A stretch of 64,000 nt of DNA from an uncultured delta proteobacterium (GTDB taxonomy: Bacteria > Desulfobacterota > RBG-13-43-22). Positions within the stretch are counted from its first letter, which is position 1, and every line of letters starts with the position of its first letter. A program made the translations under genes and the position numbers. Of this stretch, positions 3,749 to 22,450 are shown one piece after another. A model generated the notes under the pieces. It searched no databases and was not told where the DNA came from. It saw only the letters and a program-made list of their open reading frames with translations. The DNA is taken from the NCBI GenBank assembly GCA_963843145.1, contig CAWJJC010000027.1, positions 421,829 to 485,828 on the forward strand. Reading direction: 5' to 3'.

Positions 3749-3750
3749 TT

Positions 3751-4356: not shown

Positions 4357-4363
4357 GGCTTGT

Positions 4364-4392: not shown

Positions 4393-4489
4393 CGGAAAAT
4401 CATATTTTTCTGGAGGGGGCGTATTAACCCCCCCCCATGCCCGGGGCGGGCACCCCGAATGATGAAAATATTTCAAGTTTTTGTTTTTC

Positions 4490-4613: not shown

Positions 4614-4657
4614 CTTTCTGGTCATTCGAGCTCGATTAAACCCCGAATCTAATTTTT

Positions 4658-5431: not shown

Positions 5432-7138
5432 TCATTTCTGTCCGGGCCGCAGGGCTTTCTTGTCCACCTTCCCCACGGGGGTCAGCGGGAGGGAATCAAC
5501 GAATTCAATGATCTTGGGAACCTTGTAGGGAGACAGGTTCTCCCGGGCGAAATTCAAGATTTCCCGTTTGAGCGTCTCTTCCGGCCGGTCCTTGGCAGCC
5601 GGGGATCTTTGAATCACCAGCTTGACCAGTTCACTGCCCGGCCGCTGGGGATTGGGAACACCGACGATGGCGCACAGGTCCACCGCCGGGTGGTCATAGA
5701 GTTTTTCTTCCACTTCCCGGGAGAAGACCTTAAAGCCCCCCACGTTGAGCATATCCTTGGCCCGGTCCACCAGGGTGAAATACCCGGCTTCATCCATGCG
5801 GGCCACGTCGCCGGTATGCATCCAGACTTCTCCTTGAAATTCACGCAGGGCATGGGCGGTTTCCTCCGGCCGGTTGAGATAGCCTTTCATCACCTGCGGG
5901 CCTTGAATGATAAGCTCCCCTTCCTCCCCGATGGGCACTTCCAGGCTCCCGGTTTCCAGGTCGGCCAGTTTCACTCGCGTATTAACTATGGGTAACCCGA
6001 CGGTGCCGATCTTCTTTTGGCCTAAATGAGGGTTGCAGGTGATCAGCGGACTGGTTTCCGTCATCCCGTACACTTCCACGACTTTCCCGACGCCCACGAT
6101 TGCTTCCAGCGCCCGGATGGATTCCACCGGAAAAGGAGCGGCCCCGGACAGACAGAAAGTCAATTGGCTGTAATCAAGTTTCCGGAACTTCGGGTTATCC
6201 ATCAACATCAAATAGAGTGTCGGGACATTGACCAGGATAGTGGGCCGGTACTGGGCAATCTCCCGGCAGATGTGGTTCGTATCCCGGGGGTTGGGAATCA
6301 GGACCTGGGTGCCGCCCAGGGCCAGGGTGGTCATGGCCAGCATTAATCCCGCCAGATGAAAAAAGGGGAACCCGGATAAAAAGACCTCCTTTCCCGCTTC
6401 CATATGAAACCAGGTTCTGGCTTGAACGATATTGGCCACCAGATTGCGATGGGTCAGCATGGTCCCTTTGGGGAGACCGGTGGTGCCTCCCGTGTATTGA
6501 ATCAGACAGACGGCCTCCACCGGGATCTTTAAATCTAAGGGCAAAGAAGGGTATCGGTCCATGACGCGCATAAAAGGGATCACGGTTTTTTCCGGCAGGT
6601 CGAAGATCCTTCCCGTGGGGACCTTTTTTATCTTTTTCCCCAGGAGCTGTTTCCAACGGGGGAGGAAATCCAAGATCCCGGTTGGGCAGATCGTGCGGAG
6701 GTCCGGCAGTTCCTGGTGGATGGGGGCCAGGCGCTTTTCAAAGATGGCATCCAGCGTCACCAGCACCTTGGCGCGGCTGTCTTTCAATTGGTAGGCCATT
6801 TCCTTCCCGGTATGAAGGGGCGAAAGGCCGGTGACGGCGCACCCGGCCAGGATGGCGCCGATATGGGCAATGAGGTACTGAGGGGTATTGGGTAAATTGA
6901 CGGCCACCACGTCCCCGGGTTGGCAACCCTGCTCCCGGAGCATATGGGCGAATCTTAGGGCCCGGTTTTGGAATTCCTGGAAGGTGGTGGTCAAACCGAG
7001 GAAATGGTAGGCGTTCTTCTGGGGGAAACGCTGGAAGGTTTCCTGAAGCAGATCCGTATAGGATTGATCGGGGATGGGGATTTCAGGTCGAACATCCGCG
7101 TCATAAGAAGACAGCCACGGCCGGTCGTCGTAGTTCAT
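5432..7138 (-). CDS. Long-chain fatty acid-CoA ligase (FadD-like)
   Basis: YTGGTTGLPKG, YGMTE, HTGD and GKVDKK adenylation motifs. Confidence 0.9.
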   Translation of the reverse strand: MNYDDRPWLSSYDADVRPEIPIPDQSYTDLLQETFQRFPQKNAYHFLGLTTTFQEFQNRALRFAHMLREQGCQPGDVVAVNLPNTPQYLIAHIGAILAGCAVTGLSPLHTGKEMAYQLKDSRAKVLVTLDAIFEKRLAPIHQELPDLRTICPTGILDFLPRWKQLLGKKIKKVPTGRIFDLPEKTVIPFMRVMDRYPSLPLDLKIPVEAVCLIQYTGGTTGLPKGTMLTHRNLVANIVQARTWFHMEAGKEVFLSGFPFFHLAGLMLAMTTLALGGTQVLIPNPRDTNHICREIAQYRPTILVNVPTLYLMLMDNPKFRKLDYSQLTFCLSGAAPFPVESIRALEAIVGVGKVVEVYGMTETSPLITCNPHLGQKKIGTVGLPIVNTRVKLADLETGSLEVPIGEEGELIIQGPQVMKGYLNRPEETAHALREFQGEVWMHTGDVARMDEAGYFTLVDRAKDMLNVGGFKVFSREVEEKLYDHPAVDLCAIVGVPNPQRPGSELVKLVIQRSPAAKDRPEETLKREILNFARENLSPYKVPKIIEFVDSLPLTPVGKVDKKALRPGQK

Positions 7139-7332
7139 AGGTGCCCTCCTGGGAAAAGGGAAGCGGTTGACTACGAAATAAGCGGATGGAATGCTGGATG
7201 ACGGTTTAGATTAGACACATTTTGTCTGGGTTATCAATAAAAATTATACAGACCGATGACCGGTCTTTTCCTTTCCAGATCATTATGATACGATAAGAAA
7301 AAATCCGGTGGGCATAGGCAACAGAGGCGAAC

Positions 7333-8748
7333 ATGAAAAAATGGCAACGAAGATCCCTTCGGGGTCTGCTGATTATCATGATTCTCTTCGTCGGCGGGCT
7401 GGGGTGGTATGTTTATAAGGCCGTCCCCATCGGCACCGGTTATGCGGCGAAATACCTCTGTTCCAGCGTTTTTATTTCCCAGCGGGACCCGGCAGCGGTC
7501 TTTAAGGAAGACATTATACCGGTGGATAAAACGCTGACCCGGGTGATTGACGTAGCGGTGGACTATAACCGCAAAACCGTAACAGCCACGGCTTTGGGCC
7601 CATTGAAATCCAAAGCCATCTACCGCGAAGGCTGCGGCTGCACCCTGGTGGTCGGCGCCACCGAGGATGAACTTCGGAGGCAGCCCCGGCCCGCCTTTAC
7701 TCCCCGACGTCTCCCGATAAATCAACCTTGGCCCACTGGTGAAGAAGGACCGGACAGGACCCGGCCCGCGGGCTGGGACGACGAAAAGCTGCGGCAGGCC
7801 ATCGACCGGCACTTTGCCGAGCCGGGTCCCGACAAGAAAAAGCAAACCCGGGCCGTAGTGGTGGTTTACGACGGCCGCCTGGCGGCGGAACGCTACGCAC
7901 CCGGTTTTCGCCAGGACATGCCGCTCCTCGGCTGGTCCATGGCCAAGAGCGTGACCAGCGCGATCCTGGGGATCATGGTGCAAAAAGGGCTCATCGACAT
8001 CCACCGCCCGGCCCCGGTATCCGAATGGCAAAATCCCGGGGATCCCCGCCGGGCCATCACCATCGACCAATTGCTGCGCATGGCCAGCGGCCTTAAATTT
8101 GATGAGGTGTACCAACCGCTGCGCGGGGTGACTACCATGCTTTACGGCTCCCGTGACTTCGGGGCCTTTGCCGCCGGCCAACCCCTGGAAATTCCCCCGG
8201 ACCAAGAATGGCACTATTCCAGCGGTACGACCAATATCTTGGCCAAAATTATTCGCCTCCGACTGGAGGCGGCCGGCCTGCGCTCCCTGGATTTTATCCG
8301 CCGGGAGTTGTTCGACCCTTTGGGCATGTCCAGCGCCGTCTTTGAGCCGGATCCTTCCGGGACCTTCGTCGGGTCTTCCTACCTGTGGGCCACCCCCCGG
8401 GATTGGGCGCGCTTCGGGCTCTTTTATTTGCAGGACGGGGTCTGGCAGGGCCAGCGGATTCTTCCCGAAGGCTGGGTCACGTATTCATCTACTCCAACGC
8501 CGCTAGCGCCACTAGGTCAATACGGCGCCCATTTCTGGCTGAATGCCGGATCGGCTTCCAACCCAGCGGATCGGGTCTGGCCGCAGGTGCCGACGGATGC
8601 TTTTTTCGCCGAAGGCTATCAGGGCCAGCGGGTGGTCATCATTCCTTCCAGGAAACTGGTTGTGGTCCGGTTCGGCCTGACCCCGAATCCGGCCGACATG
8701 GATTTTGAGGCCTTTCTGGTTGACGTCCTGAAGGCCTTTTCTGGTTGA
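7333..8748 (+). CDS. Serine hydrolase, beta-lactamase class C/amidase-like, N-terminal membrane anchor
   Basis: SMAK (SxxK), YSS, LLRMASGL and ARFG motifs; hydrophobic N-terminus. Confidence 0.85.
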   Translation: MKKWQRRSLRGLLIIMILFVGGLGWYVYKAVPIGTGYAAKYLCSSVFISQRDPAAVFKEDIIPVDKTLTRVIDVAVDYNRKTVTATALGPLKSKAIYREGCGCTLVVGATEDELRRQPRPAFTPRRLPINQPWPTGEEGPDRTRPAGWDDEKLRQAIDRHFAEPGPDKKKQTRAVVVVYDGRLAAERYAPGFRQDMPLLGWSMAKSVTSAILGIMVQKGLIDIHRPAPVSEWQNPGDPRRAITIDQLLRMASGLKFDEVYQPLRGVTTMLYGSRDFGAFAAGQPLEIPPDQEWHYSSGTTNILAKIIRLRLEAAGLRSLDFIRRELFDPLGMSSAVFEPDPSGTFVGSSYLWATPRDWARFGLFYLQDGVWQGQRILPEGWVTYSSTPTPLAPLGQYGAHFWLNAGSASNPADRVWPQVPTDAFFAEGYQGQRVVIIPSRKLVVVRFGLTPNPADMDFEAFLVDVLKAFSG

Positions 8749-8841
8749 GAAATAGCGGTTCTTCTCTCCCCAAAGGGTAAGACGAATAAACGTTTCCACA
8801 TGGTCCGAATATGGGCTCCCTCTGCTGGCGCTAAATCTTGA

Positions 8842-9648
8842 TTAGGGCCGCTGACTTAGTATTCCCCGATGATAGGCTTCAATGTACTTGAGGCAGTAAC
8901 GGTCCTTAGCTAGCAGGACCTCGGCAGCGTAAATGAGGGCTACCATGGGGCGGTCTAACGGGTCCATAATAACGGCATCCAGTCCGCCTGCCACGCTAAG
9001 GACAACAAAGGCTCGGTTAAGCTGGCGCCGTTCCGGCAGACCATAAGATACATTGCTGAGGCCGGAAATAAAGTGCAAACCCGCAAAGTGCGAGCCCAGG
9101 ATCTTCATCAGGTCCAACGTGGCCAACACGCCGCCCGGACTGGTAGCAATAGAACGCACGAGGGGATCAAAATAGATGTCTTCCAGGGGAACGCCATCGG
9201 CCAACAGATCCTTTACCAATGCTAAGCCTACCTCCAGGGCCAGATTCTTGTCCTGGGGTACACCTCGGTCATCCATGCATAAGGCCACCACAGAGGCACC
9301 GTATTGCTTCACCAACGGTAATACCTGTTCATATCGTCGTTTCTCTCCGCTGATTGAATTGACCATTGGCTTGCCCTGATGAACGGCCAGTCCTGCGGCC
9401 AGAGCCAACGGATTGGGACTGTCCAGGCAGAGCGGCAAACCTACTGCTGACTGGACAATCCCAACTAGCCAGGCAAGCGCCTCAGGCTCGGTTTCGGCCG
9501 GCAAGGTGCCGCAATTTACATCCAGACTTTGTGCTCCGGCCCGAACCTGTCGAATGGCCTCCTCCCGGATTACGTCACTCTTTCTCCCTTCAACCGCACT
9601 ACTTATGCTTTTCCGGGTGGAATTAATCTTCTCGCCTATGATTAACAT
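8842..9648 (-). CDS. Methyltetrahydrofolate:corrinoid methyltransferase (AcsE/MT2-like, pterin-binding TIM barrel)
   Basis: MLIIGEKINSTRK, LDVN, CLDS, NSISGE, GLSNVSYGLP motifs. Confidence 0.9.
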   Translation of the reverse strand: MLIIGEKINSTRKSISSAVEGRKSDVIREEAIRQVRAGAQSLDVNCGTLPAETEPEALAWLVGIVQSAVGLPLCLDSPNPLALAAGLAVHQGKPMVNSISGEKRRYEQVLPLVKQYGASVVALCMDDRGVPQDKNLALEVGLALVKDLLADGVPLEDIYFDPLVRSIATSPGGVLATLDLMKILGSHFAGLHFISGLSNVSYGLPERRQLNRAFVVLSVAGGLDAVIMDPLDRPMVALIYAAEVLLAKDRYCLKYIEAYHRGILSQRP

Positions 9649-10280
9649 CAGCGCTCCTCAGCATAAATCCGTTTGCAAATATTCAACCCGGCCACGGCAT
9701 CCTCTGCATAAAAATCAGCGCCGGCAAACTGCCTCACCTGCTCATTGCAAGGTGTTCCGCCGATGATCACCTTAACGCAATCTTTGAGACCGGCCTGGCC
9801 GACCGCCTCCACCACAGCCTTCATCTGAGGATAGGCAAAATTCAATAAGGCGCTTAGGCCCAGGACCTTGGATCCCGTCTCTCGGAGAGCGGCCACAAAT
9901 TTTTCGGCCGGCACATCGACACCGAGATCAACGACTTCGAAACCAGACCCGCGCAGGAGCGTTATGACGATGTTCTTGCCAATATCATGGATGTCGCCTT
10001 TCACCGTTCCGATAACGACCTTTCCCAAAGAAGAGCTACCGCCTGCCTCTCGGAGCAATGGCTCCAATCGTTTCATGACGGTTTTGAGGATCTCCGCGGA
10101 GAAAATAAGCTGGCTGATAAAATACGTGCCGATGGAGAAAAGCTCTCCTACCGCAATCATGCCCTCGTCGCAGGCCTTGATTATTTCAAATGCCGGCACG
10201 CCTTCTTTGATCCTCTCCTCAACGAGATCGTAAAACTTCTTCTCGTCTAAATCGCGCAATGCCTGAGCAAGTTCATCCAT
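9648..10280 (-). CDS. Corrinoid (B12-binding) protein
   Basis: GTVKGDIHDIGKNIV (DxHxxG), DLGVDV, GLSALL, IIGG. Confidence 0.95.
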   Translation of the reverse strand: MDELAQALRDLDEKKFYDLVEERIKEGVPAFEIIKACDEGMIAVGELFSIGTYFISQLIFSAEILKTVMKRLEPLLREAGGSSSLGKVVIGTVKGDIHDIGKNIVITLLRGSGFEVVDLGVDVPAEKFVAALRETGSKVLGLSALLNFAYPQMKAVVEAVGQAGLKDCVKVIIGGTPCNEQVRQFAGADFYAEDAVAGLNICKRIYAEER

Positions 10281-10306
10281 TTTGCTTCCTCCCTTATATC
10301 AATTTC

Positions 10307-11671
10307 TTACAACGCCCACTGCCAGAGCCAGATGTAGGCCATACTCTCGAACATTTCCCAAGGCTTCTGGATCAAACCTTCTTCACCCATAACCCCACCG
10401 ATTTCGGTTGATTTCACCTCCCAGGGTGTAACCATTTTCGGGAACTTGAAGGCCCTGATTTCACCTGGAGGAGCTGCCTTGGGCTTAGGTTTAATACTTT
10501 TGTCGTAAACCCCGAATTCCATCACTCCATCGATCATGGCGCGAAAATTTTCAGGCTTTGTGGTGTAAGGGATGCCGCAACCTCCGTTGACTATAAAGCC
10601 GCCTCCCTGGCCCACGATTTCACATAAGTGCTTCACCTGCTGGCGCATCTCTTCTGGAGTCCCGAGGATAAACTGGGAATCCTTAATCCCGCCCGCTAAA
10701 CACTGGTGATGACCGATCTCTTTCTTGGCATTAAAAATATCGCCCTGATTGTCGATGTCGCAAAGGACCTTGCCCCTGGGCAGTTCCAGCATATGATGCC
10801 AGTGATGACTCCAGTCACCTTCCAGGTAGGCGCGGACTGTGTGGCCTGCCCCAATTATTATCTCCAGGACCCTCTTAAAGGAAGGCCAGTAGAACCTGTC
10901 GAACTCCTGGGGTGAGAGGAAGCAGGCCTTGTGGGTGGGCACGAAAATGGGCCACCGTCTGAGCGGATCGGCCATGGCCAGCGCGAGATTGGCCATTTCA
11001 TTAACCAGGACGTCACAGGCGGCTACGACCTTATCTGGCTGCCGGTAACAGTCCATGAGGGTGCCCGTCAACCCGCGCATACCATCGGCCAGAACATCAA
11101 AGGGGGCTAGGAAGAAGCCCGCCATGGGTTGGGGCATGCCTACCTCGTTTTGCAAATGGATGGCCCGGTTCCTCATGATCTGGCCCAGCATCACTTGGGC
11201 CATTCCGCCCTTGAGGAAGGCCAGGTAAGAGCGTATGGAACCTCTCTCTCCATATTCGCCAAGTATCCTGGGCAACCAGCGGTCAAAAAGGAATTCAACG
11301 GGATTGTTAATCAGCAGGCCGTACTCGTCGGCCTTCATGTATTCCTCTTCCACAAATTGAAACTGGTTTCGAGGTGGCAGGTCCCGGCCCGGCAGCTTGT
11401 AGGTTTTCAATCCGACGGCGTCAAAGAGCGGACCATAAATGCGGTTGTCCCTCAGCACATCTACCTCGGGAAAAGCGCGGCAGAAATCCACTTCCGCCTG
11501 GAGCCACTTTTCACTATCGTAGATCGTTTCTTGGTTCGTGTTGCCAGAGTAGACCTCAGCAAAATAGTTGCTGCCAGGTGCGATCGGCACGCGATCTGTC
11601 GGCTCCAGGGCAACGGCCGCCTGGTAGCGGCCCAATCTTTCGTCAAAAAGTGCTTTTGCATCTTGGGACAT
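10307..11671 (-). CDS. Uroporphyrinogen decarboxylase-fold substrate:corrinoid methyltransferase (MT1, O-demethylase-like)
   Basis: DRVP at the N-terminus, FLSPQEFDRFYWPSFK, YLEGDW, GGGFIVNGGCGIP...KPEN; adjacent to corrinoid and MT2 genes; ATG at 11671 has a GGAGG RBS. Confidence 0.85.
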   Translation of the reverse strand: MSQDAKALFDERLGRYQAAVALEPTDRVPIAPGSNYFAEVYSGNTNQETIYDSEKWLQAEVDFCRAFPEVDVLRDNRIYGPLFDAVGLKTYKLPGRDLPPRNQFQFVEEEYMKADEYGLLINNPVEFLFDRWLPRILGEYGERGSIRSYLAFLKGGMAQVMLGQIMRNRAIHLQNEVGMPQPMAGFFLAPFDVLADGMRGLTGTLMDCYRQPDKVVAACDVLVNEMANLALAMADPLRRWPIFVPTHKACFLSPQEFDRFYWPSFKRVLEIIIGAGHTVRAYLEGDWSHHWHHMLELPRGKVLCDIDNQGDIFNAKKEIGHHQCLAGGIKDSQFILGTPEEMRQQVKHLCEIVGQGGGFIVNGGCGIPYTTKPENFRAMIDGVMEFGVYDKSIKPKPKAAPPGEIRAFKFPKMVTPWEVKSTEIGGVMGEEGLIQKPWEMFESMAYIWLWQWAL

Positions 11672-11836
11672 GGCATCGCCTCCTCCATTTTTTTTAGGAT
11701 AACCCCTAGCCAAAAAGTTTTGAAATTTTTTTGGCTGTAACCAGAACTACTTTAAAAGGTTCAAGGAACGTTCTTTTATATTAGATTCTCACATCCATGG
11801 TTAGAGACGAATCATCAGAGCAATGGATAAAAGAAT

Positions 11837-12631
11837 CTACCACGATTCGTTCCCACTGAACGCCTTATCCCCCGAATAGATTCTGATTACCTCTGGGTTG
11901 TTCAATACTACTTCGGGTTTTCCCTCTGTAATTTTGGTGCCAAAGTTAAGCACGACGATCCAATCGGCAAGGTCGCTCACCATCTGCATATCATGTTCAA
12001 CCCAAACCATGGTCATCCCCATCTCATGTTTGATCCTGAGCATGAAGCGGGCAAGGTCTTCCTTTTCCTGGCGGTTCATCCCAGCAGATGGCTCATCCAG
12101 TAAAAGTATCTGAGGTTCTATGGCCAGGGCCCTCCCAAGGCCTATGATCTTCTGAATGCCATAAGGTAAGTCCGAGACCATTCTCTTACGGTACCTCTGC
12201 AGTTCGAGAAAATAGATAATTTCCTCTGCCGCCTCCCGCTGCTCCAGCTCTTCCTTCAAAGTCTTTCCCCAGAAGAGGCCGTTCGATAGGAGACCTCCCC
12301 GTATTTTCAGGTGTCTGCCTATGAGAAGGTTGTCGAGAACCGTCAGATGCGGGAAGAGCTCTACATGCTGAAAAGTTCGTGCGATGCCAGCCTTGGCCAC
12401 TTCGTGGGGCTTTGCTTTCGCCAGGTTGATGCCGTTGAAGATAATTGTCCCCTCCGTAGGAGGGTAAATGCCGCTTATACAGTTGAAGGCGCTCGTTTTC
12501 CCTGCGCCATTCGGACCTATGAGGGCGAGCAACTCCCCACTGTGGACATCCATAGAGATATTATTGAGGATCCCCAGGCCCCGCACAGAGAAACTTAAGG
12601 ACTTTAGGCTCAAATGGATCGGCCTATCCAT
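11837..12631 (-). CDS. ABC transporter ATP-binding protein (LivG-like)
   Basis: GPNGAGKT, ARTFQ, LPYG, LLLDEP, VEHDM. Confidence 0.9.
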   Translation of the reverse strand: MDRPIHLSLKSLSFSVRGLGILNNISMDVHSGELLALIGPNGAGKTSAFNCISGIYPPTEGTIIFNGINLAKAKPHEVAKAGIARTFQHVELFPHLTVLDNLLIGRHLKIRGGLLSNGLFWGKTLKEELEQREAAEEIIYFLELQRYRKRMVSDLPYGIQKIIGLGRALAIEPQILLLDEPSAGMNRQEKEDLARFMLRIKHEMGMTMVWVEHDMQMVSDLADWIVVLNFGTKITEGKPEVVLNNPEVIRIYSGDKAFSGNESW

Positions 12632-13439
12632 AGCATCTCCTGGTACGCCGGTACTGTTTCACCGCGGCATAGCTCCTCCTTGAGTCCTTTTGTCCTTGTC
12701 CCAAGTAAAAGTCCTTGATATTTTGATCATTTTTGAGCATATCCCGATTCCCGGCTAGGACGATGCGGCCGTTTTCAATTACATAGCCATAGTCGGCTAT
12801 TTCGAGAGCGGCCACCGCATTCTGTTCCACCAGGAGTATGGAAATTCCCTGCTCATTGCAGATCAACTTGAGGAGATTCATGAGTTCCCTTACTATGATG
12901 GGTGCCAGCCCAAGAGAAAGCTCATCAACGAGCAACAATCGGGGCTGGCAGAGAAGCGCCGTTGCCAGGGCCAACATCTGTCGTTCCCCTCCGCTTAGAT
13001 AGCCGGCCAGGCGGTTTCGGACCTTTCCGAGAAGTGGAAAATATTCAAAGACGCGTTGGTGGAGGATGGGGTTATGCGCCTTTCCGGTGCAGGGAACAGC
13101 AATTTCGAGGTTTTCTTCGACGGTGAGGCTTTCGAACACCTTATCGCGCTCCGGTACGAGGACAAGACCTTTCTGGGCGATTTGGTGGGGGAACTTTCCT
13201 TGAATCTGCTCTCCTCGAAAAGTTATAAACCCCTCGGTTACCTTGGCATTATCCACCCCGAGGAACCCCGATATGGCCCGCAGGGTCGTCGTCTTCCCCG
13301 CCCCGTTGACACCCAGAAGGGCCACAATCCGATTTCTTGCTACACCGAGGGATACACCCTGAACAGCAGTTGACACGTTATGGTAGACCACTTCCAGGTT
13401 TTCCACGGCGAGAAGGATTTCGTCCCTATCGTCAGTCAT
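12624..13439 (-). CDS. ABC transporter ATP-binding protein (LivF-like)
   Basis: GVNGAGKT, LSGGERQ, DELSLGLAP, VEQN. Confidence 0.9.
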   Translation of the reverse strand: MTDDRDEILLAVENLEVVYHNVSTAVQGVSLGVARNRIVALLGVNGAGKTTTLRAISGFLGVDNAKVTEGFITFRGEQIQGKFPHQIAQKGLVLVPERDKVFESLTVEENLEIAVPCTGKAHNPILHQRVFEYFPLLGKVRNRLAGYLSGGERQMLALATALLCQPRLLLVDELSLGLAPIIVRELMNLLKLICNEQGISILLVEQNAVAALEIADYGYVIENGRIVLAGNRDMLKNDQNIKDFYLGQGQKDSRRSYAAVKQYRRTRRCYG

Positions 13440-13444
13440 CGGCG

Positions 13445-14506
13445 CTATCTTCCTAAAGGTTTGTATTTGAACGGCCACATCAGGAAATAATTCTTGATCC
13501 GATTCCAGATGCCCACAAGGCCGCTCGGCTCAAGAAGAAGAAAAATAATCATGATGAGCCCGAAACTCCCATACTTGACGGCAGAAATATAGGTAGTGAA
13601 CCGCGTCGGGATCGAAAACGTACTGGCCGCCATATCGATGAGATAGGGGAGGAGCACAATAAAGATTGTGCCGAATATGGTCCCGAGAATGGAGCCCAGA
13701 CCTCCAATAATGATGATGGCAACATACTCGATGGTGGTGAACAGTGAAAAGGCCTCAACGGACACGAACCCCCGATAATAGGCGAAGAGACCTCCCGCGA
13801 TAGAGGTAATGGTCGAACTGACCATAAACGCCGAAACCTTATAGAAGGAAACATTGACTCCCAAGGCTTCGGCAGCTACGTCCCTGTCCCGGATGGCCAC
13901 CCAGGCCCGACCTGTTTTGGATCGGAGCAGGTTCATCGAAAAAAGAATAAGCAAAAGGTCTGCAGCCAGAAACGCAAAGTACCAGACTACGGGGTTTTCT
14001 ATGATGAAAGGCCCTATTTTCGGTGGGTCTATCACAACGCCGGTGGCGAACTCTCTTCGTGTCTGGTACTCGGAGCCAAGATAAATGACGATAAAATGGA
14101 GCGCCATGGTACTCAGCGCTAGATACAACCCTTTAAGGCGCAACGAGGGAAAACCAAAAATGAACCCCAGAATGGCCCCTATCAATCCAGAGGCGGGCAG
14201 CGTAATCCAGATGGGTGCCTGCACCTCTTTGAAAAGTATGGCTGTGGTGAACGCACCCGCTGCCAGCAATCCAGCATGCCCTAACGATATCTGTCCCGCA
14301 TATCCCGTCAGAAGCATCAGGGCAAGCGCCCCGATCAGAGTAAGAAAAATCTGGGCAGCTAGGTCAATTCCAAAGGCAGTAGTGAAAAAGGGGAAGGCCA
14401 GAAGGCCCGTGCCCAGTAATGCCAGCAGTACCCACCTGTTCCTCGTTTCCACCAAGGACAAATCTTCTCGATAACTTGTCTTCACACCTCCGTTTGAATA
14501 GGCCAT
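13445..14506 (-). CDS. ABC transporter permease (LivM-like)
   Basis: GYAGQISLGHA, LRLKGLYLAL, IIIGGLGS; multiple TM segments. Confidence 0.9.
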   Translation of the reverse strand: MAYSNGGVKTSYREDLSLVETRNRWVLLALLGTGLLAFPFFTTAFGIDLAAQIFLTLIGALALMLLTGYAGQISLGHAGLLAAGAFTTAILFKEVQAPIWITLPASGLIGAILGFIFGFPSLRLKGLYLALSTMALHFIVIYLGSEYQTRREFATGVVIDPPKIGPFIIENPVVWYFAFLAADLLLILFSMNLLRSKTGRAWVAIRDRDVAAEALGVNVSFYKVSAFMVSSTITSIAGGLFAYYRGFVSVEAFSLFTTIEYVAIIIIGGLGSILGTIFGTIFIVLLPYLIDMAASTFSIPTRFTTYISAVKYGSFGLIMIIFLLLEPSGLVGIWNRIKNYFLMWPFKYKPLGR

Positions 14507-15385
14507 TTATACCCTGTCCAATTCTTCCTTAGTGCCGAAAAGCCCCCATGGTCTGACAAGCAGCATGCACAAGAGCACAAAAAAAGGAGCAGCTTCGCTT
14601 ACTTCGGGACTTATATAATTTATAGCTAGAATCTCCGCCAGGGCAACAATGAGGGCGCCGGGGATTACTCCTGCCAGACTGTCCAGTCCACCGACGAGGA
14701 CAACAGGGAAGGCCTTAAGCCCGATGACAAACAGGTTTGGCTCAAGACCGCTGTCGCAGGCCTGGATCATCCCGGCAAAACCTGCTGCAAAGACAGCTAT
14801 CGCCCAAGAGATGGCATAGTAAAGATGGAGCCTTATGCCCCTCTGGGAGGATAGCAGGGGGTTTTCTCCTACGGCACGCATTCGGAGACCCCATCGGGTA
14901 AATTTCAAGCCGAAGAAAAGACCTGTATACAGCACAATGGAGCTGACGACGGTGACCAAACCGAAGGTGGAAACAACGGCCCCCTTCATCAGGGTATAGG
15001 AGACGTTCTTAAGGCCAAGCTGCTCAAGGGGATGCAAGGCCTGGGCGGTCCAGATCAGCGTGATGAGGCCCCGCAGGAGAATTCCCAGTGATATGGTGAC
15101 GAGAACGCCTGCGAAAATAGATTTACCCGAGATAAAACGCATGAGAAAAAAATAAATGAGGAAACCCAGTACCAAGCTAAGGATACAGGCTCCTACAAAA
15201 GCAACCATGGGGTGAACCCCCACCCACAGTGCCGAGGTAAAAAGAAAGTAACCGCCCATGGCCATGAGTTCTCCGTGGGCTAGGTTCAACACACGGCTCA
15301 CTTTGTATATGAGAACATAGCCACAACAGATCAGAGAATAAAGTGCGGTAAGCACGACGACATTGACGGCTAATTGCATAAACAT
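14507..15385 (-). CDS. ABC transporter permease (LivH-like)
   Basis: LNLAHGE, GLRMRAVGEN, VLVGGLDS, LLVRPWGLFG. Confidence 0.9.
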   Translation of the reverse strand: MFMQLAVNVVVLTALYSLICCGYVLIYKVSRVLNLAHGELMAMGGYFLFTSALWVGVHPMVAFVGACILSLVLGFLIYFFLMRFISGKSIFAGVLVTISLGILLRGLITLIWTAQALHPLEQLGLKNVSYTLMKGAVVSTFGLVTVVSSIVLYTGLFFGLKFTRWGLRMRAVGENPLLSSQRGIRLHLYYAISWAIAVFAAGFAGMIQACDSGLEPNLFVIGLKAFPVVLVGGLDSLAGVIPGALIVALAEILAINYISPEVSEAAPFFVLLCMLLVRPWGLFGTKEELDRV

Positions 15386-15454
15386 AATGGATTAATATAG
15401 TTATAAATCATTACAGTTTTTCGCCTACGACCTGGAGATATTCAACCTAATTGA

Positions 15455-15554
15455 ATTATAATTTACATGATATTGATATGTCAATAACTTTTTTTAACAT
15501 AAATCCTAATATCCTCTTTTTTTCTTGACATATTATAATTTTATTAGGTAATAT
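15455..15554. promoter_or_regulatory. Back-to-back sigma70 promoters in an AT-rich divergent spacer; palindrome TATTGA-N4-TCAATA (15471..15486) is a candidate TetR operator
   Basis: Minus strand TTGACA-18-TATAAT toward livH; plus strand TTGACA(15525)-18-TAATAT toward tetR. Confidence 0.55.
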
Positions 15555-15695
15555 GTATTTAAATAGATAGATTATTCATTTTTTATTAATAAATTATAAT
15601 ATTATTAGGAATAGTTTATTTAAAAAGACAATTATATCTTAAAGATCCTGGAATGTTAGGTAACTATATTATTTAATTAGCTTAGGAATAGACCG

Positions 15696-16295
15696 ATGCC
15701 AACTGACAAGTCTTCAAAAGACAGTACGAAGGACCGAATTCTGAAGGCCGCCACAAAGCTCTTCGCTGAACAGGGATACCAGGCCACTATTGTCGACATT
15801 TCCAAAGAGGCAGGCTATTCCGAGGCAGCTCTGTACGAGTATTTTCAGGGCAAGGAAGAGTTGCTCCTTACCATCCCCCACATGTGGGTCGTTGATGGGA
15901 TTGAGGAATTGAAAGAACAGTTGTTCGGTATAAAAGGAGCCTTTAATAAGCTTAGAAAGTTCCTCTGGTGGTATATGCGGTATATTGAAAAGGCCCCGCT
16001 CACCGCCAAGGTGGTTTTTCTCCATATTAAAGTGAACCGGAATTTTGTTGATACCGAGGTCTACTCCCACGTAAAGACCTTTTATGCCTCCCTTATCGAC
16101 ATATTTGAAGAGGGGAAGCAGTCAGGTGAGATTAGGAGCGATTTGAACCCCTTCGTGGCGAGAAGCATCTTCATCGGGACCATCGAGCATATGACTATCC
16201 GCTGGCTGCTGAAAGATATGACCTATTCACTTTTCGATACACTTGAGGAGACCTTTGACCTCCTTGTGGATGGCTTACGACCGCCGAACTCATGA
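15696..16295 (+). CDS. TetR/AcrR family regulator (FadR/YsiA-like)
   Basis: ILKAATKLFAEQGY...ISKEAGYSEAALYEYFQGKEELL HTH. Confidence 0.9.
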   Translation: MPTDKSSKDSTKDRILKAATKLFAEQGYQATIVDISKEAGYSEAALYEYFQGKEELLLTIPHMWVVDGIEELKEQLFGIKGAFNKLRKFLWWYMRYIEKAPLTAKVVFLHIKVNRNFVDTEVYSHVKTFYASLIDIFEEGKQSGEIRSDLNPFVARSIFIGTIEHMTIRWLLKDMTYSLFDTLEETFDLLVDGLRPPNS

Positions 16296-16341
16296 GCGGA
16301 CTCCATAGGATGCAGGAGGATTGGGGTTTAAAAAGAGAGAA

Positions 16342-18243
16342 ATGGAAGCACTGAAAAAGTATGAGGAACTGAGAAATAAGACAGTTCCTGGGCTCTTGCG
16401 AGAGCGGGCACGCACCAGGCCAGATGGAGTTGCCTATCTTTCAAAGAAAAAAGGGATCTACCAGAAACGGACCTGGTCGGAATTCCACGGGATGGTTGCT
16501 GGCTGTGCCATAGCTTTCATGGGTCTAGGCCTTCGGAAAGGCCATCGTCTTGCCCTTATGGGAGACCCCTCGGCGGAATATGTTATTGCAGAACTGGCAG
16601 CCCAATGCCTCGGGGCCGTTACCTACGGCATTTACCCCACCTCCTCACAAAAAGAGCTTTGTTACCTCCTGGGGGACGGCGGCGCATCCATTTTTGTGGC
16701 AGAAAACCATGAATATGTGGATAGGCTCTTACCCATCCTTGAAGGTCTGAAACAACTGAAACAGATCATAGTGATCGATACGAAGGGGATGTTCACTTAC
16801 CGCCACCCTCTGCTTACCTCCTTTGAGGACCTCATGCTCGAAGGCAAGAATCGACTCTCATCGGAACAAAAGGCCTTTGACGAATATGTGAGTAGGGTGG
16901 CCCCCACTGACGGACTCTCCATCATCTATACATCGGGCACTACGGGAAATCCCAAAGGGGTACTGGTCAGCCACGGCAAGCATCTTGCCGCCGCTTATAC
17001 TTTTTTAGACCGTTACCCGATCCTGGCCAAGTGCCCGCATAGGACCGTTGTTTATCTCCCCCTCTGCCACATCGTCGGGAAGGTGGTGGCTATAACGCTG
17101 CCCCTTTTGGCTGACCTGATTCCTCATTACGGCGAGGACATCGTAGATCTCGAGCAGACGATTTTCGATACGGGTCCTACCGTGTTGTTTACCGTACCTA
17201 GGTACGTTCAGAAGTTTGCTTCCAAAGTACTTGTGGGGATTCAGAACACCAGTGGCTTCAAGAAGATTTTGTACCATCTTGCACTTGCCCTCGGCCGAAA
17301 GTACGCAAGAAACCTTTGGGAGGGCAGACAGAGTATCCTGGTTTCATTGGGATATTTCCTAGCCTCTTGGACCATCTTCAAGCCCATCTTAAACCAGATC
17401 GGCTTCGACAAGGTCAGGCTCCTCCTCTCCGTAGGTGCACCCCTCTCGCCAGAACTCGCCGTATTATGGCAGATTTACGGTGTCAATCTTTCGGATATTT
17501 ATGGGCAGACTGAAACTGGCGGCGCTATCATAGCCTCCCAAGGGCAAAGTTTCCCCAGACCCGGCGATGTGGGAGTGCCACCGACGGGATGGGAGGTCGG
17601 GCTGGGCGAGAATCGAGAGATTCTAGTAAGAGGACAGGATCTCTTCGAAGGATACTGGAATAATCCGACCATGACACAGGCCGTATTAGATAATGACGGA
17701 TGGCTCCATACCGGCGATACCGGTGAATGGACACCAAAGGGACAGTTACGTATTCTTGACCGCCTCCGGGACATCATAGTTACTTCCGGAGGGAAGACCT
17801 TGAGTCCCACTTCGATAGAAAGCTCGCTACGGGCAAGCCCCTATATCAATGAGGCTGTCGTCTTTGGTCATAATCGGAATTACATAACCGCCCTCATCGA
17901 AATTGACTTTGAAACCGTCTCCGCCTGGGCTAGGCTTCACAATGTTACGTATACGGGTTTTAGTGATCTAAGCGGGAATGCGCAAATACTCCGCCTGGTC
18001 GACGATGAGATAGACAAGGCCAATGCGGACCTGGCCCGGGTGGCCCAGGTAAAGGATTTCCGTATCTTGCCTCAGGAACTCGATCCCTGGCACGATGAGG
18101 AGCCCATAACACCTACCAGAAAGGTGAAGCGGGACCTTATGTATCAGAAGTATGAAAAGCTGATCGAGTCGATGTACACTGATAAACAGGAGGAAGGGCT
18201 GGTTACCTCCGAAATCGGGGATCTGCTGTTGTCGAACTCCTGA
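16342..18243 (+). CDS. Long-chain acyl-CoA synthetase (AMP-binding, ABC-transporter-associated type)
   Basis: YTSGTTGNPKG, YGQTE, WLHTGD, TPTRKVKR; start uncertain (16321 or 16342). Confidence 0.88.
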   Translation: MEALKKYEELRNKTVPGLLRERARTRPDGVAYLSKKKGIYQKRTWSEFHGMVAGCAIAFMGLGLRKGHRLALMGDPSAEYVIAELAAQCLGAVTYGIYPTSSQKELCYLLGDGGASIFVAENHEYVDRLLPILEGLKQLKQIIVIDTKGMFTYRHPLLTSFEDLMLEGKNRLSSEQKAFDEYVSRVAPTDGLSIIYTSGTTGNPKGVLVSHGKHLAAAYTFLDRYPILAKCPHRTVVYLPLCHIVGKVVAITLPLLADLIPHYGEDIVDLEQTIFDTGPTVLFTVPRYVQKFASKVLVGIQNTSGFKKILYHLALALGRKYARNLWEGRQSILVSLGYFLASWTIFKPILNQIGFDKVRLLLSVGAPLSPELAVLWQIYGVNLSDIYGQTETGGAIIASQGQSFPRPGDVGVPPTGWEVGLGENREILVRGQDLFEGYWNNPTMTQAVLDNDGWLHTGDTGEWTPKGQLRILDRLRDIIVTSGGKTLSPTSIESSLRASPYINEAVVFGHNRNYITALIEIDFETVSAWARLHNVTYTGFSDLSGNAQILRLVDDEIDKANADLARVAQVKDFRILPQELDPWHDEEPITPTRKVKRDLMYQKYEKLIESMYTDKQEEGLVTSEIGDLLLSNS

Positions 18244-18328
18244 TAGTGTGCCTTGAGCGATCAGGGAGGTCAATAGCAAACTGCTGGTTGATTTCAGACA
18301 ATAAAAAAATATTAAGGAGGACTGAACC

Positions 18329-19504
18329 ATGTTACGGAAAGGAATGTATGGATTTTTGCTGGTGGTATGTCTCTTGGCTTTGTGCTGGGGTCCTGCCTAC
18401 GCGCAGGAAGGCTATGTCGTCGGATTCAATCTCGCCATAACAGGTTTCGGTGCTGAGACCTATGCACCGATAAAGGATGCATTTGACGCCTATTTCAAGG
18501 ACGTAAATGCCAGGGGGGGCATAAACGGACATCCCGTCAAAATTATCTATGAGGACGACACTTCACAGCCATCCAAGGCGGCGGCCAATGCAAAAAAGCT
18601 AATCTACCAGGATAAAGTCATTCTGCTCATGAACGCCAGTTTGTCCAGTACCTTTCCGCCCACGGTCAGCACTGCAAAACAGGCGAAGGTGCCCGTCTTT
18701 TTCGCCGGCGCGGTCTGTCCGCCGGAGGTATATCCTCCACACCCTGACCCTTATCAATTCTGCTCTACGGCATTCTCCATGAAGAATGACAGTCGATTTG
18801 CCATTTCTTTCATTAAGCAGCAGACCAAACCGCCTTTCAAGCTTGGACTTGTCGCGATGAACATACCTATCTCTCGGGGAGAGATTGATTTTGCAGAGGA
18901 GCTCTCCAAGACGATGAATATCACGGTGGCAGATAAAGAGATAATCCCGCCGCCGACTGCCGATTTTACACCCTTTGCCACTAAACTAAAAAACGCAGAC
19001 CCTGAGTGGGTTTATGCCTGGGCTCCCTGGGGACACGAAATAAAGACCTTGGAAGCCCTTCGCAAACTCGGTTGGAAGGGCGAATATTTGTCCTGGGCCC
19101 ATTTACAAGCGGAAGATGAACTTGCCAGATTGAAGGACGACAACCTCTACGTATTTGGAACGAATGCCTTTTTTTCGGAAAACCTCGAAGTGCACAAGAA
19201 AATAAAGTCCGCGGCGAGTAGCCAGAAAACGATCTACCCATTTACCCAGTTGACCGAAGGATGGGTCGGGGCTACCGTCCTTGAGGACATTCTAAAGAAT
19301 ACATCTTGGCCGCCGACTCCGGAAAAGGTGCGACTTGCCATGAATCATGTTAAGGCTGATATGAAGGGGCTCAAGGGCGGACCCCTCGTATGGACGGAGA
19401 ACAACCATTTCCGAACAGTAAATTATTATAGGGTTTACAAATGGGACTCTAAGAAGAACGGAATCGTAATAATCAAAGACTGGACACCGATGGAGATTAA
19501 ATAA
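18329..19504 (+). CDS. ABC transporter substrate-binding protein (LivJ/Peripla_BP_6 type)
   Basis: Signal peptide; NARGGINGHPVKIIYEDD; DFTPFATKLK. Confidence 0.9.
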   Translation: MLRKGMYGFLLVVCLLALCWGPAYAQEGYVVGFNLAITGFGAETYAPIKDAFDAYFKDVNARGGINGHPVKIIYEDDTSQPSKAAANAKKLIYQDKVILLMNASLSSTFPPTVSTAKQAKVPVFFAGAVCPPEVYPPHPDPYQFCSTAFSMKNDSRFAISFIKQQTKPPFKLGLVAMNIPISRGEIDFAEELSKTMNITVADKEIIPPPTADFTPFATKLKNADPEWVYAWAPWGHEIKTLEALRKLGWKGEYLSWAHLQAEDELARLKDDNLYVFGTNAFFSENLEVHKKIKSAASSQKTIYPFTQLTEGWVGATVLEDILKNTSWPPTPEKVRLAMNHVKADMKGLKGGPLVWTENNHFRTVNYYRVYKWDSKKNGIVIIKDWTPMEIK

Positions 19505-19538
19505 CCTATTGGACCCTTTAAATGATCCCTGGCAGATA

Positions 19539-19570
19539 GGGAGTGATCCTTCGATCACTCCCCACTTTTT
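19539..19570 (+). terminator. Intrinsic terminator after the substrate-binding protein gene
   Basis: GGGAGTGATC-cttc-GATCACTCCC followed by a T-run. Confidence 0.75.
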
Positions 19571-20012
19571 GAAATAGGCAGAATACCAGGCCGGCTGCCA
19601 TTATCCGAAGAGAGATAAGATGTCCAAATCGGGGGCAAAATAGGCACTTAAAGGATATTGAGCATCAGGGTGTTGCTATCGCTCGCTATCACCGCTTATT
19701 AACCGAGCAACGGCGCTGCCCCTTAATGTATCCGGGATTTTTTTTATTAAAGCCTCTTCCTCCCACGGCTATCCGATTTTGAACGTCTGATGGCCGGGTT
19801 GGAGTACATCGGCCAGAAAGGGGCCTACCGCTACCCAGTCCCGAACCTGTCGGCCCTGTCCGAGCCGAAGATTCCTCAAAACTATTTTCAGATCGCTCCG
19901 GCGGCCGGATGAGCTGAAAGCCGGCCGGCGTATTGGATGATTTCGGAAGTTTCTCAGGGATAGGTGGCCAGACACTTATGCGGGGCCGACTGGAGTTCCC
20001 TCTGCCGCGTAG

Positions 20013-20999
20013 TTATCCGGCCACCTTTCTCAACTCTTCCAGGAGATTGTCCTCGAGCTCAATGGTTCCGGAGGCCCGGCTTTCGGCGGCCTGACGGTTG
20101 CCCCGTTCCCCGGGCACGAAGATTTCCTGGACTCCGGGCAGCTTTGCCGTCGCCTTTACCTTTTCAATCAGGGTGCTCACGTTGCGGATGAAGGCTTCGC
20201 GATCCCCAAAGAGATCGGGATCGATAGCCAGCACGAGGTGCCCCCAATTCTTCCCGGGGTCCCCTACCCCCGCGCAGGCGGCGCCCACCAGCGGACCGGC
20301 GAGGATCTCGATAATCAGGGCCAGGCCGGCCCCTTTATACCCCCGGTCGAAAGACCGGATCGCCCCTTTGATCGCCAGGGCCGGATCGGTGGTGAGGCTG
20401 CCGTCCGGATCATAGGCCACATCATCGGGGATGCTTTTACCGGCCGTTTGGGCCTCGACTAGCCCGTAAAAGGCCATGGCGGCCGTGGACATGTCCAGAA
20501 CGATCGGACCGGGTTTCGCGGGAATCCCCACGGCCAGGGGATTGGTGCCGAAGATCGGCTGAAAGGACCCGGCCGTAGCCACCCGCGGCGGCGAACTGGC
20601 AAAGACCAGCCCCACGAGGCCCTGGCTGGCGATCTCGGAGGCGACATAGCCGATGGCGCCCGAGGACGTGGAAGTGTTGAAAGTACCGACGATGCCGATA
20701 CCGCCGGCCTTGGCCTTTTCCAACACCACGTCCAACGCCTTTTTGACCACCACCATGGCCTGGTTCTGGTTTCCGTTTATTTTGGCCGACAGGGCGGTTT
20801 CCTTTTCGATCGTTATGGCCCCGGCCTTCGGGTCTTTGGGTATGCCTTTGCCGATGAGCTTGACCACCCCTTGATTGTTGCCCCGCAGTTGCGCGTAAAG
20901 CAGCATCTCCCGGATGGTGGCGGTTTCGGCGTCGTCATAGCCGTAGTGTTTAAGGGCCTTGTCGGTCAGGGCTTCCAATTCTTTCAGTTCAATCTTCAT
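20013..20999 (-). CDS. Ldh_2 family oxidoreductase (malate/L-sulfolactate dehydrogenase-like)
   Basis: FGTNPLAVGIP, LDMSTA, GYKGAGL, VPGERG. Confidence 0.88.
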   Translation of the reverse strand: MKIELKELEALTDKALKHYGYDDAETATIREMLLYAQLRGNNQGVVKLIGKGIPKDPKAGAITIEKETALSAKINGNQNQAMVVVKKALDVVLEKAKAGGIGIVGTFNTSTSSGAIGYVASEIASQGLVGLVFASSPPRVATAGSFQPIFGTNPLAVGIPAKPGPIVLDMSTAAMAFYGLVEAQTAGKSIPDDVAYDPDGSLTTDPALAIKGAIRSFDRGYKGAGLALIIEILAGPLVGAACAGVGDPGKNWGHLVLAIDPDLFGDREAFIRNVSTLIEKVKATAKLPGVQEIFVPGERGNRQAAESRASGTIELEDNLLEELRKVAG

Positions 21000-21063
21000 C
21001 CAAATTTCCTCGCTTTACCTGCTTGGCGCAGTTTTGCCACGTCCGGCGCAGTTTCTTTTCGCT

Positions 21064-21673: not shown

Positions 21674-21749
21674 GTTTTTATTAACGGTCTCAAAATAATA
21701 TTGAACGGATTTCTTAACCCCGCCCAGTCACAAAGAAAGGCAAAAGACG

Positions 21750-21960
21750 ATCTCTCACAGAGCACACAGAGATCGCAGAGAATAGTTAATTTCTGATTGC
21801 CGCTGAGAGGCCGGCAATCAGAAAAAATCTCCCGCTCCGCGAATAAGACCCCGCCGGAGGCGTGAGTTGTTTTGAAAAATCGGCGTCTCAGCGATTTTTC
21901 AAAAAATAACTTGGTCTTTCTCTGTGCCCTCGGCGAACTCGAGCGAAGCGGGCGAGAGAT
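21750..21960. repeat. MITE-like palindromic element inside the VOC cassette 3' region
   Basis: Terminal ATCTCTC/GAGAGAT; cacagagcacacagag arm; internal hairpins ctgattgccg/cggcaatcag and ttgaaaaatcg/cgatttttcaa. Confidence 0.7.
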
Positions 21961-21997
21961 AAAAATAACACCCTGTGTAAATACAATTATGGGACTG

Positions 21998-22450
21998 TTA
22001 ATATCTCCAACTCTGCAACTCAATGATGTTGCCTTCCGGGTCGGCGCAATAAATAAAGGTCAAGAGCCCCACCCCCTTCACCTCAGCGGAGGTAATTTCG
22101 CCTATCTTCCTGCCGCCATGGCCTAGGACGAGAGCCAATGTCTCCTTCACATCGTCTACCTCAAAGGCCAGGTGCATGATCCCTTCCCGGTTGGCGATGC
22201 TAGGCGATCTCGGCGCATTCTCGGAATACTGGTAGATTTCGAGCGTCGGCCCTTCTTCTCCGTACCCGGGAAACCTCAAATGCACGCCCGAGAATTGAGC
22301 ATTGGCCACCCCGGTCCCCTTACTCAGCCACTCGCCCCCGAGATGGCGTTCCGGCGGTACCGGGGCACAGCCGAACACCTCCTCATAAAATCGGGAAAGC
22401 CGGCGCCAATCCGCTGCTACTATATTCGTATGCTTGTATTTTGTTTTCAT
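21998..22450 (-). CDS. VOC/glyoxalase family protein
   Basis: HTNIVAADW...FYEEVFG, LEIYQY, HLAFEVDD, DPEGNIIEL. Confidence 0.9.
   Translation of the reverse strand: MKTKYKHTNIVAADWRRLSRFYEEVFGCAPVPPERHLGGEWLSKGTGVANAQFSGVHLRFPGYGEEGPTLEIYQYSENAPRSPSIANREGIMHLAFEVDDVKETLALVLGHGGRKIGEITSAEVKGVGLLTFIYCADPEGNIIELQSWRY

Follow-up and report, generated by a model that had tools for sequence, protein, structure and literature searches.

A ten-gene accessory island linking a Liv-type importer and an acyl-CoA synthetase to a corrinoid methyltransferase set in an uncultured delta proteobacterium, with a proposed role in the use of methoxylated aromatic acids

The DNA analysed here, referred to as the window, comprises 64,000 nucleotides (nt) near the end of a 486-kb contig (CAWJJC010000027.1) from the metagenome-assembled genome of an uncultured delta proteobacterium (5.3 Mb, 98% complete, 6.9% contaminated). 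Positions 8842-19570 carry ten intact genes in two divergent groups, as judged from open reading frames (ORFs) and domain families. They encode a Liv-type ABC importer with its substrate-binding protein (SBP), an AMP-forming acyl-CoA synthetase (ACS), a TetR-family regulator, and a corrinoid methyltransferase set consisting of a substrate:corrinoid methyltransferase (MT1), a corrinoid protein (CoP) and a second methyltransferase (MT2). Judged by comparison of genomes, this island is a real, conserved, accessory catabolic unit. The function that we favour, with somewhat better than even confidence, is that the horizontally gained island would import a methoxylated aromatic acid and O-demethylate it in its free form, the methyl group being passed to tetrahydrofolate and the ring acid being activated by ACS. 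An earlier note on this DNA, made from the sequence alone, had placed the same ten genes at these positions, and the ORFs and families proved to be as it stated. The features are as follows.

8842-9648, minus strand: MT2, methyl-corrinoid:tetrahydrofolate methyltransferase (Pterin_bind, PF00809, 5.5e-21)
9648-10280, minus strand: CoP, corrinoid (B12) carrier protein (B12-binding_2, PF02607, and B12-binding, PF02310)
10307-11671, minus strand: MT1, substrate:corrinoid methyltransferase of a clade of 454 amino acids (aa) (URO-D, PF01208, 97.7 bits)
11672-11836, minus strand: spacer of 165 nt between LivG and MT1, with a predicted stem-loop (RNA fold, -39.7 kcal/mol, z -2.3)
11837-12631, minus strand: LivG-like ABC ATPase (PF00005 and BCA_ABC_TP_C)
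12624-13478, minus strand: LivF-like ABC ATPase (PF00005)
13445-14506, minus strand: LivM-like ABC permease (BPD_transp_2, PF02653, 142 bits)
14507-15385, minus strand: LivH-like ABC permease (BPD_transp_2, PF02653, 106 bits)
15386-15695, no strand: AT-rich divergent control region of 310 nt, with promoter-like sites on both strands
15696-16295, plus strand: TetR-family regulator (TetR_N, PF00440, and TetR_C_4, YsiA-like, PF08359)
16321-18243, plus strand: ACS, AMP-forming acyl-CoA synthetase of 640 aa (AMP-binding, PF00501, and AMP-binding_C_3, PF23562)
18329-19504, plus strand: SBP, periplasmic substrate-binding protein with a signal peptide (Peripla_BP_6, PF13458, 145 bits)
19539-19562, plus strand: terminator-like hairpin ending the TetR-ACS-SBP unit (10-bp stem with 6 GC pairs, followed by CACTTTTTGA)

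The importer and ligase genes were accompanied by a corrinoid methyltransferase gene in all five genomes with readable flanks. In each of them the order ACS-SBP-LivHMFG was followed after 46-165 nt by a gene for a URO-D methyltransferase, the longest gap being that of the window (165 nt versus 46-69 nt in the other four). The five genomes belong to two families and are arranged as follows.

Window (G000): the same ten genes, in two divergent units as the result of an inversion
G445: TetR-ACS-SBP-LivHMFG-MT1-CoP-MT2, all in one direction, the gaps being at most about 110 nt
G259: ACS-SBP-LivHMFG-MT1-CoP, followed by a P-loop protein of CLP1 type
G423: ACS (a 41%-identical replacement)-SBP-LivHMFG-MT1, and a divergent GntR-CoP pair on the upstream side
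G011: TetR-ACS-SBP-LivHMFG, followed by a URO-D protein of 352 aa and a CoP of 35% identity, at which the contig ends

The Liv and ACS proteins were 58-73% identical across the linked genomes. For G011, G259, G445 and G423 the identities were 65-69% for LivG, 64-70% for LivF, 65-71% for LivM and 65-72% for LivH, and SBP orthologs were 64-73% identical. The ACS orthologs of G011, G259 and G445 were 58-64% identical, while a 41%-identical ACS occupied that position in G423. TetR orthologs headed the ACS-SBP-Liv unit in G011 (62.5%) and G445 (71%). The methyltransferase sets behind the importer-ligase unit were of at least three kinds; four genomes had an MT1 of the 454-461-aa clade, and one had the 352-aa form with CoP. 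By these comparisons a corrinoid methyltransferase set has stayed next to the importer-ligase unit even as the set itself was exchanged, which speaks for function and against a neighbour merely inherited by chance. The earlier note had named a lack of linkage in other genomes as grounds for giving up its proposal; since linkage was found in all five readable genomes, the association of transporter and ligase with corrinoid methyltransferase genes stands. Genome G443 (one contig) and three metagenome contigs with SBP orthologs (1.5-3.6 kb) were too short to reach the methyltransferase position. Among 401 sampled genomes of the phylum, 3 had ACS orthologs (58-64% identity); SBP orthologs were seen in 2 genomes out of 21 from the class and in 4 out of 55 from the order to which G259 belongs. 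The CLP1-type protein of G259 (L099:18954-19859) is 301 aa long, lies directly after CoP at the usual place of MT2 and matched no NCBIfam model.

The ten genes were also gained or lost together. In G002, a genome of the same genus, window positions 2534-7247 and 19772-21010 were collinear at 93-95% nucleotide identity, and positions 7248-19771 were replaced by 4.3 kb of other DNA. In G001, also of the same genus, window position 8738, at the end of a beta-lactamase-like gene, abutted position 25092. The flanking DNA was 85-95% identical in these two genomes, and none of the ten island proteins was encoded in the corresponding stretches of either. The variable block is therefore about 8740-19770, which matches the coordinates of the earlier note, and its treatment of the ten genes as one island agrees with their joint presence or absence between conserved flanks. 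Of 20 other genomes of the family one had an MT1 ortholog, and of 3 of the genus none did. The G+C content was 0.46-0.52 in the island and 0.55-0.59 in the flanks; direct repeats and mobility genes were sought at the island borders and none were found. The DNA of the window was matched in soil metagenome runs (three DNA runs of one study and no RNA run), and the relatives in public records carry the label delta proteobacterium or Thermodesulfobacteriota.

The three methyltransferase components were assigned by family models and motifs. MT2 scored 311 bits with NF005719 (cut-off 259), as expected of a pterin-binding MT2, and CoP bears the sequence DIHDIG, which corresponds to the DxHxxG motif of corrinoid carriers. 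The CoP and MT2 genes overlap by 1 nt in the start region of MT2. For MT1 the likely start codon is the ATG at 11671, which is preceded by GGAGGAGG, rather than the upstream TTG at 11713. Neither promoter-like nor terminator-like sites were seen in the spacer between LivG and MT1 (11672-11836). The importer has the components of a LIV-I/HAAT-type ABC system, namely two BPD_transp_2 permeases, two ATPases and a Peripla_BP_6 SBP. All five proteins scored below the equivalog cut-offs for the branched-chain amino acid system LivHMGF/LivJ proper (LivG 233 vs 362, LivF 181 vs 441, LivM 139 vs 366, LivH 74 vs 379 and SBP 30 vs 477). The best model for ACS was FadD11, at 286 bits against a cut-off of 950, which places it outside the long-chain ligases that this model defines.

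ACS genes of this type were not confined to the island. Proteins of about 600-660 aa with AMP-binding_C_3 and 33-36% identity to the island ACS were encoded twice more in the genome and twice in relatives (L094-L097), and all four genes sat inside LivGF/LivMH operons with binding proteins of their own. No URO-D, corrinoid or MT2 genes were found in these four paralogous units. An ACS within a Liv operon is thus a general uptake-and-activate design of the lineage, and one copy of it has been joined to a demethylase.

On the favoured reading, SBP and LivHMFG would import the methoxylated acid. MT1 would transfer the O-methyl group to the Co(I) form of CoP, and MT2 would pass it from CoP to tetrahydrofolate; the genes for these steps are present, and the activities are predicted from them. 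Methyl-tetrahydrofolate would then enter the Wood-Ljungdahl enzymes of the genome, and the corrinoid may be re-reduced by one of the RACo activators encoded elsewhere. ACS would activate the ring acid as a CoA thioester, ready for anaerobic degradation of the ring, acting mainly on the hydroxylated product and perhaps on the substrate too. By analogy, the acyl-CoA product of ACS would be the likely inducer, releasing the FadR/YsiA-like TetR from the divergent promoters. Methyl transfer to tetrahydrofolate had been proposed in the earlier note and fits the gene set, and its imported carboxylate is supported as probable. Its methoxylated or S-methylated acid was retained as a methylated carboxylate and narrowed to a methoxylated aromatic acid as the likelier kind, on account of the neighbourhoods of MT1 orthologs.

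The genome contained further genes that could provide sinks and helpers for such a pathway. No RACo-type corrinoid activator was encoded in the island, in the window or on its contig, in keeping with the earlier note, which had seen no corrinoid-reactivating ATPase in the window; five PF14574 genes of the RACo type scored above the cut-off on other contigs. The MetF and Fhs genes that it had put at 37-46 kb, together with MetV, are real in the case of MetF (MTHFR, 37563-38489) and Fhs (FTHFS, 44580-46343), and they lie outside the island; the possible MetV ORF at 38574-39164 was matched by no Pfam or NCBIfam model. A BamA/Oah ring-opening hydrolase (537 bits, cut-off 464) and acetyl-CoA synthase were also present in the genome. 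Between MTHFR and FTHFS, at 40048-44478, lies a gene for a 1476-aa fusion of several pyridine-nucleotide-disulfide-oxidoreductase, Fer4_20 and ferredoxin domains, which is probably an electron-transfer partner of MetF.

The neighbourhoods of MT1 orthologs were annotated at 28 loci (10 + 18). As the ORFs were picked by a greedy longest-ORF rule, only Pfam-positive neighbour calls were used. An importer stood beside the methyltransferase genes at 16 of the 28 loci (MFS 9, TRAP 7, with both in L024, and Liv-type 1), and a RACo activator at 12. The typical order in Bacillota was MFS-MT1-CoP-MT2-x-GntR(UTRA)-CoP-RACo-short URO-D. The TRAP and MFS importers beside MT1 point to an organic anion as substrate, not a gas. 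Genes of aromatic type were seen at several loci. L013 had a UbiD decarboxylase and a PaaK-like ligase near the methyltransferase genes, L016 a PaaK-like ligase with TRAP, and L030 an IclR regulator, a PaaK-like ligase, TRAP and MT1-CoP-MT2-RACo, followed by a three-subunit Mo enzyme whose best match was the alpha subunit of 4-hydroxybenzoyl-CoA reductase (753 bits, cut-off 994). Amidohydro_2 proteins were encoded near the methyltransferase genes in L014 and L027. Just upstream of the ten-gene row of G445 were genes for two acyl-CoA-dehydratase-activase ATPases and for two subunits of the benzoyl-CoA-reductase / 2-hydroxyacyl-CoA-dehydratase / double-cubane family. Demethylation of methoxybenzoates is known from Desulfofundulus thermobenzoicus, Desulfomonile and Sporomusa. 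As a separate observation, a GntR(UTRA) gene was followed at once by a second CoP gene, and often by RACo, in L001, L002, L004, L015, L019, L022, L023, L026, L031, L011 and L126 (G423).

A total of 989 MT1 homologs were found, the best 120 of which were at least 63% identical. The phyla represented were Bacillota, Thermodesulfobacteriota, Actinomycetota, Acidobacteriota and Spirochaetota, and many of the sequences had been obtained from peat, bog and soil. A survey anchored on MT1 covered 34 full-length loci with orthologs of 63-80% identity; the CoP gene directly followed MT1 at 25 of them, and MT1-CoP-MT2 was present at 16, where the MT2 orthologs behind CoP were 55-72% identical. In a quick maximum-likelihood tree (IQ-TREE; 61 rows, two short rows being left out and each locus of the distant tandem arrays represented by a single copy) the 454-aa clade comprised 38 rows with an SH-aLRT of 100. 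The MT1 of the window nested with L033, L003 and L005-L007, while G259 together with G445, and G423, branched at the base of the clade. Across the 38 members 91 of 454 positions were invariant. MT1 scored 39 bits with the MtaA/CmuA family model TIGR01463 (cut-off 235) and thus falls outside that family. Two clade members carry the JGI label methoxylated-aromatic:corrinoid methyltransferase, an automatic name.

The sole MT1 relative of solved structure was CdmB (9rui; E 2.2e-41, about 30% identity, residues 2-67 and 92-389 aligned). Its end aligns to MT1 position 389, beyond which members of the clade continue for about 65 residues (390-454; window 10307-10501). This C-terminal extension is missing from CdmB and from relatives of 390-415 aa and has a conserved aromatic tail (YIWLWQW in the window). 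Two positions set the ACS-linked enzymes apart. Gly197 (in LADG) and Gly366 (in GGCG) were present in all four ACS-linked MT1s of the clade (window, G259, G445 and G423); their codons lie at window 11081-11083 and 10574-10576. Among the 34 other clade members a single row had Gly at either site, and it had Gly at both; this row is the second of the MT1 copies at L015, an MFS-linked locus of Bacillota. The remaining rows had Ala, Val, Thr or Cys at 197, and Asn was found at 366 in 31 of 34 and at the aligned site of CdmB. The nearest relatives of the window MT1 (78-80% identity) also lack both glycines, having Ala or Thr and Asn there. As a control, other groups of four rows were compared and yielded 0 and 1 positions of this kind, the sample being small. 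The pattern suggests that the MT1s serving this importer share a specificity unlike that of their relatives, and a convergent change of specificity is possible.

Several results weigh against a methoxylated aromatic acid as the substrate. The 454-aa clade is without any member of established substrate, and the substrate of the window MT1 may differ from that of its closest relatives, because these lack Gly197 and Gly366. A Liv system adjoined MT1 at only 1 of the 34 loci of the MT1-anchored survey (L033, which is G018, of the same family as the window), and it is a different one, with ATPases 33-39% identical to those of the island; orthologs of the island ACS, SBP or TetR were found at none of the 34. 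The methyltransferase set is therefore not tied to this importer. All neighbours of aromatic type scored below their equivalog cut-offs. The neighbours in G259 look aliphatic (AOR, Fe-ADH, 3-hydroxyacyl-CoA dehydrogenase and MaoC), as does the short-chain fatty acid (SCFA) transporter of G423. ACS and TetR resemble fatty-acid types (FadD11 and FadR) and not benzoate-CoA ligases. The matches of SBP to solved binding proteins, amino-acid binders among them, were weak and showed no clear preference (E 3e-10 to 2e-8). Solved structures were tried as a guide to the ligands of both SBP and ACS and were set aside, the matches being weak and non-discriminating.

Another reading supposes a non-aromatic methylated acid, such as a methoxy- or methylthio-aliphatic one, that is demethylated, then activated and degraded by a beta-oxidation type of pathway. 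The best models of ACS and TetR, FadD11 and Bacillus FadR, agree with this, as do the neighbours of G259 and G423 and the short, MtaA-sized URO-D protein that replaces the 454-aa MT1 in G011. However, the fatty-acid model scores are all far below their cut-offs, the ortholog neighbourhoods contain UbiD, PaaK-like, 4-hydroxybenzoyl-CoA reductase-like and benzoyl-CoA-reductase-family genes, and the characterised close relatives of this MT1 group, according to the CdmB paper (PMC13222342), use methoxylated aromatics or haloalkanes. A non-aromatic acid is considered unlikely, at about one chance in a handful. The two halves of the island could also be unrelated neighbours, a fatty-acid or organic-acid importer-ligase unit lying beside a methyltransferase system for a diffusible donor such as chloromethane. 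CdmB, the only solved relative, is a chloromethane enzyme, the gap between LivG and MT1 in the window is long, and Liv and ACS units do occur without methyltransferase genes. CdmB is only about 30% identical to MT1, however, and organic-anion importers, which a gas would not need, stand beside MT1 at more than half of the annotated loci. The linkage has moreover persisted in five of five genomes through an inversion and at least three methyltransferase gene sets, and the ten genes come and go together. A chance association is accordingly held to be very improbable.

The order of activation and demethylation was considered as well. Anaerobic aromatic degraders usually strip substituents at the CoA level, and the earlier note had allowed that the methyl group might be removed from a CoA thioester. 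In such a scheme ACS would make the thioester of the imported methoxylated acid and MT1 would demethylate that thioester. The ACS gene lies directly before the SBP gene in all five linked genomes, even where it is a replacement, the TetR has a ligand domain of acyl-CoA type, and genes of an acyl-CoA-radical-enzyme family adjoin the row of G445. The two glycines of the ACS-linked MT1s, at sites where most other clade members and CdmB differ, might open the pocket for a larger substrate, so that these enzymes would act on methoxy-aroyl-CoA. This last proposal is judged improbable, and so, to the same degree, is the scheme as a whole. The same Gly pair occurs in the MFS-linked Bacillota copy of L015, and at all ten Bacillota loci (Sporomusa, Desulfofundulus, Desulfosporosinus and others), where MT1 is 65-72% identical and MFS is present, no CoA ligase was found within about 4 kb; in L004 one AMP-binding gene lies 5 kb from MT1. 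Demethylation of a CoA thioester is therefore not supported. Liv operons elsewhere hold ACS without methyltransferase genes, so that ACS goes with the importer and not with MT1, and none of the corrinoid methyltransferases known to us uses a CoA ester as its substrate. If the scheme were nevertheless true, MT1 would be the first corrinoid O-demethylase to work at the CoA level, and the rule of activating first and stripping substituents later would be extended to methoxy groups. The island offers a clean test of corrinoid demethylase action on CoA esters.

Demethylation of the free methoxylated aromatic acid, the reading preferred here, combines two known designs: each half is known, the one as a three-component corrinoid O-demethylase and the other as a Liv-type importer with a CoA ligase under TetR. 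The demethylases of Moorella (MtvABC), Acetobacterium (Odm/Vdm) and archaea (MtoABCD) resemble the island in having an MT1 of the UroD superfamily, a DxHxxG carrier, a pterin-binding MT2 and a separate activator of the RACo type. The island differs from them in that its MT1 falls in the 454-aa clade, which is uncharacterised and extended by roughly 65 aa at the C-terminus, and in that its genes are joined to a Liv-type ABC importer, ACS and TetR. Its host has ring-degradation genes and so may use not the methyl group alone but also the ring. The CdmB paper places CdmB beside the O-demethylases MtvB, OdmB and VdmB, describes many clades of the MT1 superfamily as uncharacterised, and draws the conservation set from homologues at least 40% identical to CdmB, without stating a membership cut-off (PMC13222342). 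CdmBCA of Acetobacterium dehalogenans has the same three-gene logic, but CdmB takes gaseous haloalkanes through hydrophobic channels, for which an importer is unneeded. Published Mto operons carry MFS transporters and a regulator (PMC8630106 and PMC8359953).

For the importer half, a close operon design is that of MbdA and MbdR, in which a CoA ligase (MbdA) and an ABC transporter share one operon and the TetR-family repressor MbdR is released by 3-methylbenzoyl-CoA, the aryl-CoA product of the ligase (PMC4424350). The likeness may be taken as one of operon design: that operon, as described there, is without methyltransferase genes, and the island ligase is of the 640-aa AMP-binding_C_3 type. 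The paralogous Liv and ACS units of this genome and its relatives share the placing of ACS in a Liv operon and differ in having no URO-D, corrinoid or MT2 genes. In Archaeoglobus fulgidus the levels of Liv and fatty-acid ligase genes increase on a methoxy compound, but these genes are at other sites in the genome, and the response was read as mixotrophy. In the open-access literature searched, no description was found of a fixed union of importer-ligase and demethylase genes or of the 454-aa MT1 clade, nor any mention of Desku_2712-2715, the genes around a clade member in Desulfofundulus kuznetsovii.

Acetogens, and more recently some archaea, are usually credited with the anoxic O-demethylation of lignin-derived aromatics; they use the methyl group but not the ring. 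A soil anaerobe with BamA, acetyl-CoA synthase and a fixed unit for uptake, demethylation and CoA activation suggests that one organism may use both. The island is also a handle on a large and highly conserved MT1 clade, with its many homologs from peat and soil.

The control region between the two gene groups contained a sigma-70-like site on the minus strand (15484-15455, 12/12) and another on the plus strand (15525-15554, 10/12). An imperfect inverted repeat of 32 nt (15385-15416 / 15648-15679, 75% complementary) puts similar sequence immediately ahead of each divergent start codon, and its two arms are candidate sites for a regulator. The control regions of the window, G011 and G445 were all AT-rich, and their palindromes differed; that of G011 was ACTATAAT-A-ATTATAGT and that of G445 was ATTAGTAT-A-ATACTAAT. 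A common TetR operator was sought in these three regions, and no shared motif was seen beyond promoter-like sequence. The regulator scored 99.6 bits with the Bacillus FadR (YsiA) model NF053878, below the cut-off of 200. Since its TetR_N and TetR_C_4 domains are present, the likeness to FadR seen in the earlier note holds, and the protein is called FadR-like only. An Rfam scan of the whole window gave no match, and hence there is no cobalamin riboswitch in it.

Some further observations were made around the island and among the MT1 loci. Just beyond the island, at 22580-22972, is a gene for a Rap1a-family immunity protein (type VI secretion immunity), and G001 is also without that DNA. Short intergenic stretches of about 130-330 nt in the island flanks (4432-4613, 5136-5389, 21678-22003 and 24512-24648) had dozens of matches of 70-96% identity in three genomes of the same genus and look like a family of dispersed small repeats. 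In L033 (positions 1291-3990, G018) the LivG-like gene was split over two frames and no permease ORFs were called between the binding protein and the ATPases, which is probably due to sequencing indels in the assembly. Three loci of Dehalococcoidia / Chloroflexota (L052, L053 and L054) had tandem arrays of URO-D MT1 paralogs, five to eight in number and sharing 27-33% identity with the window MT1, with one CoP and one MT2 in common.

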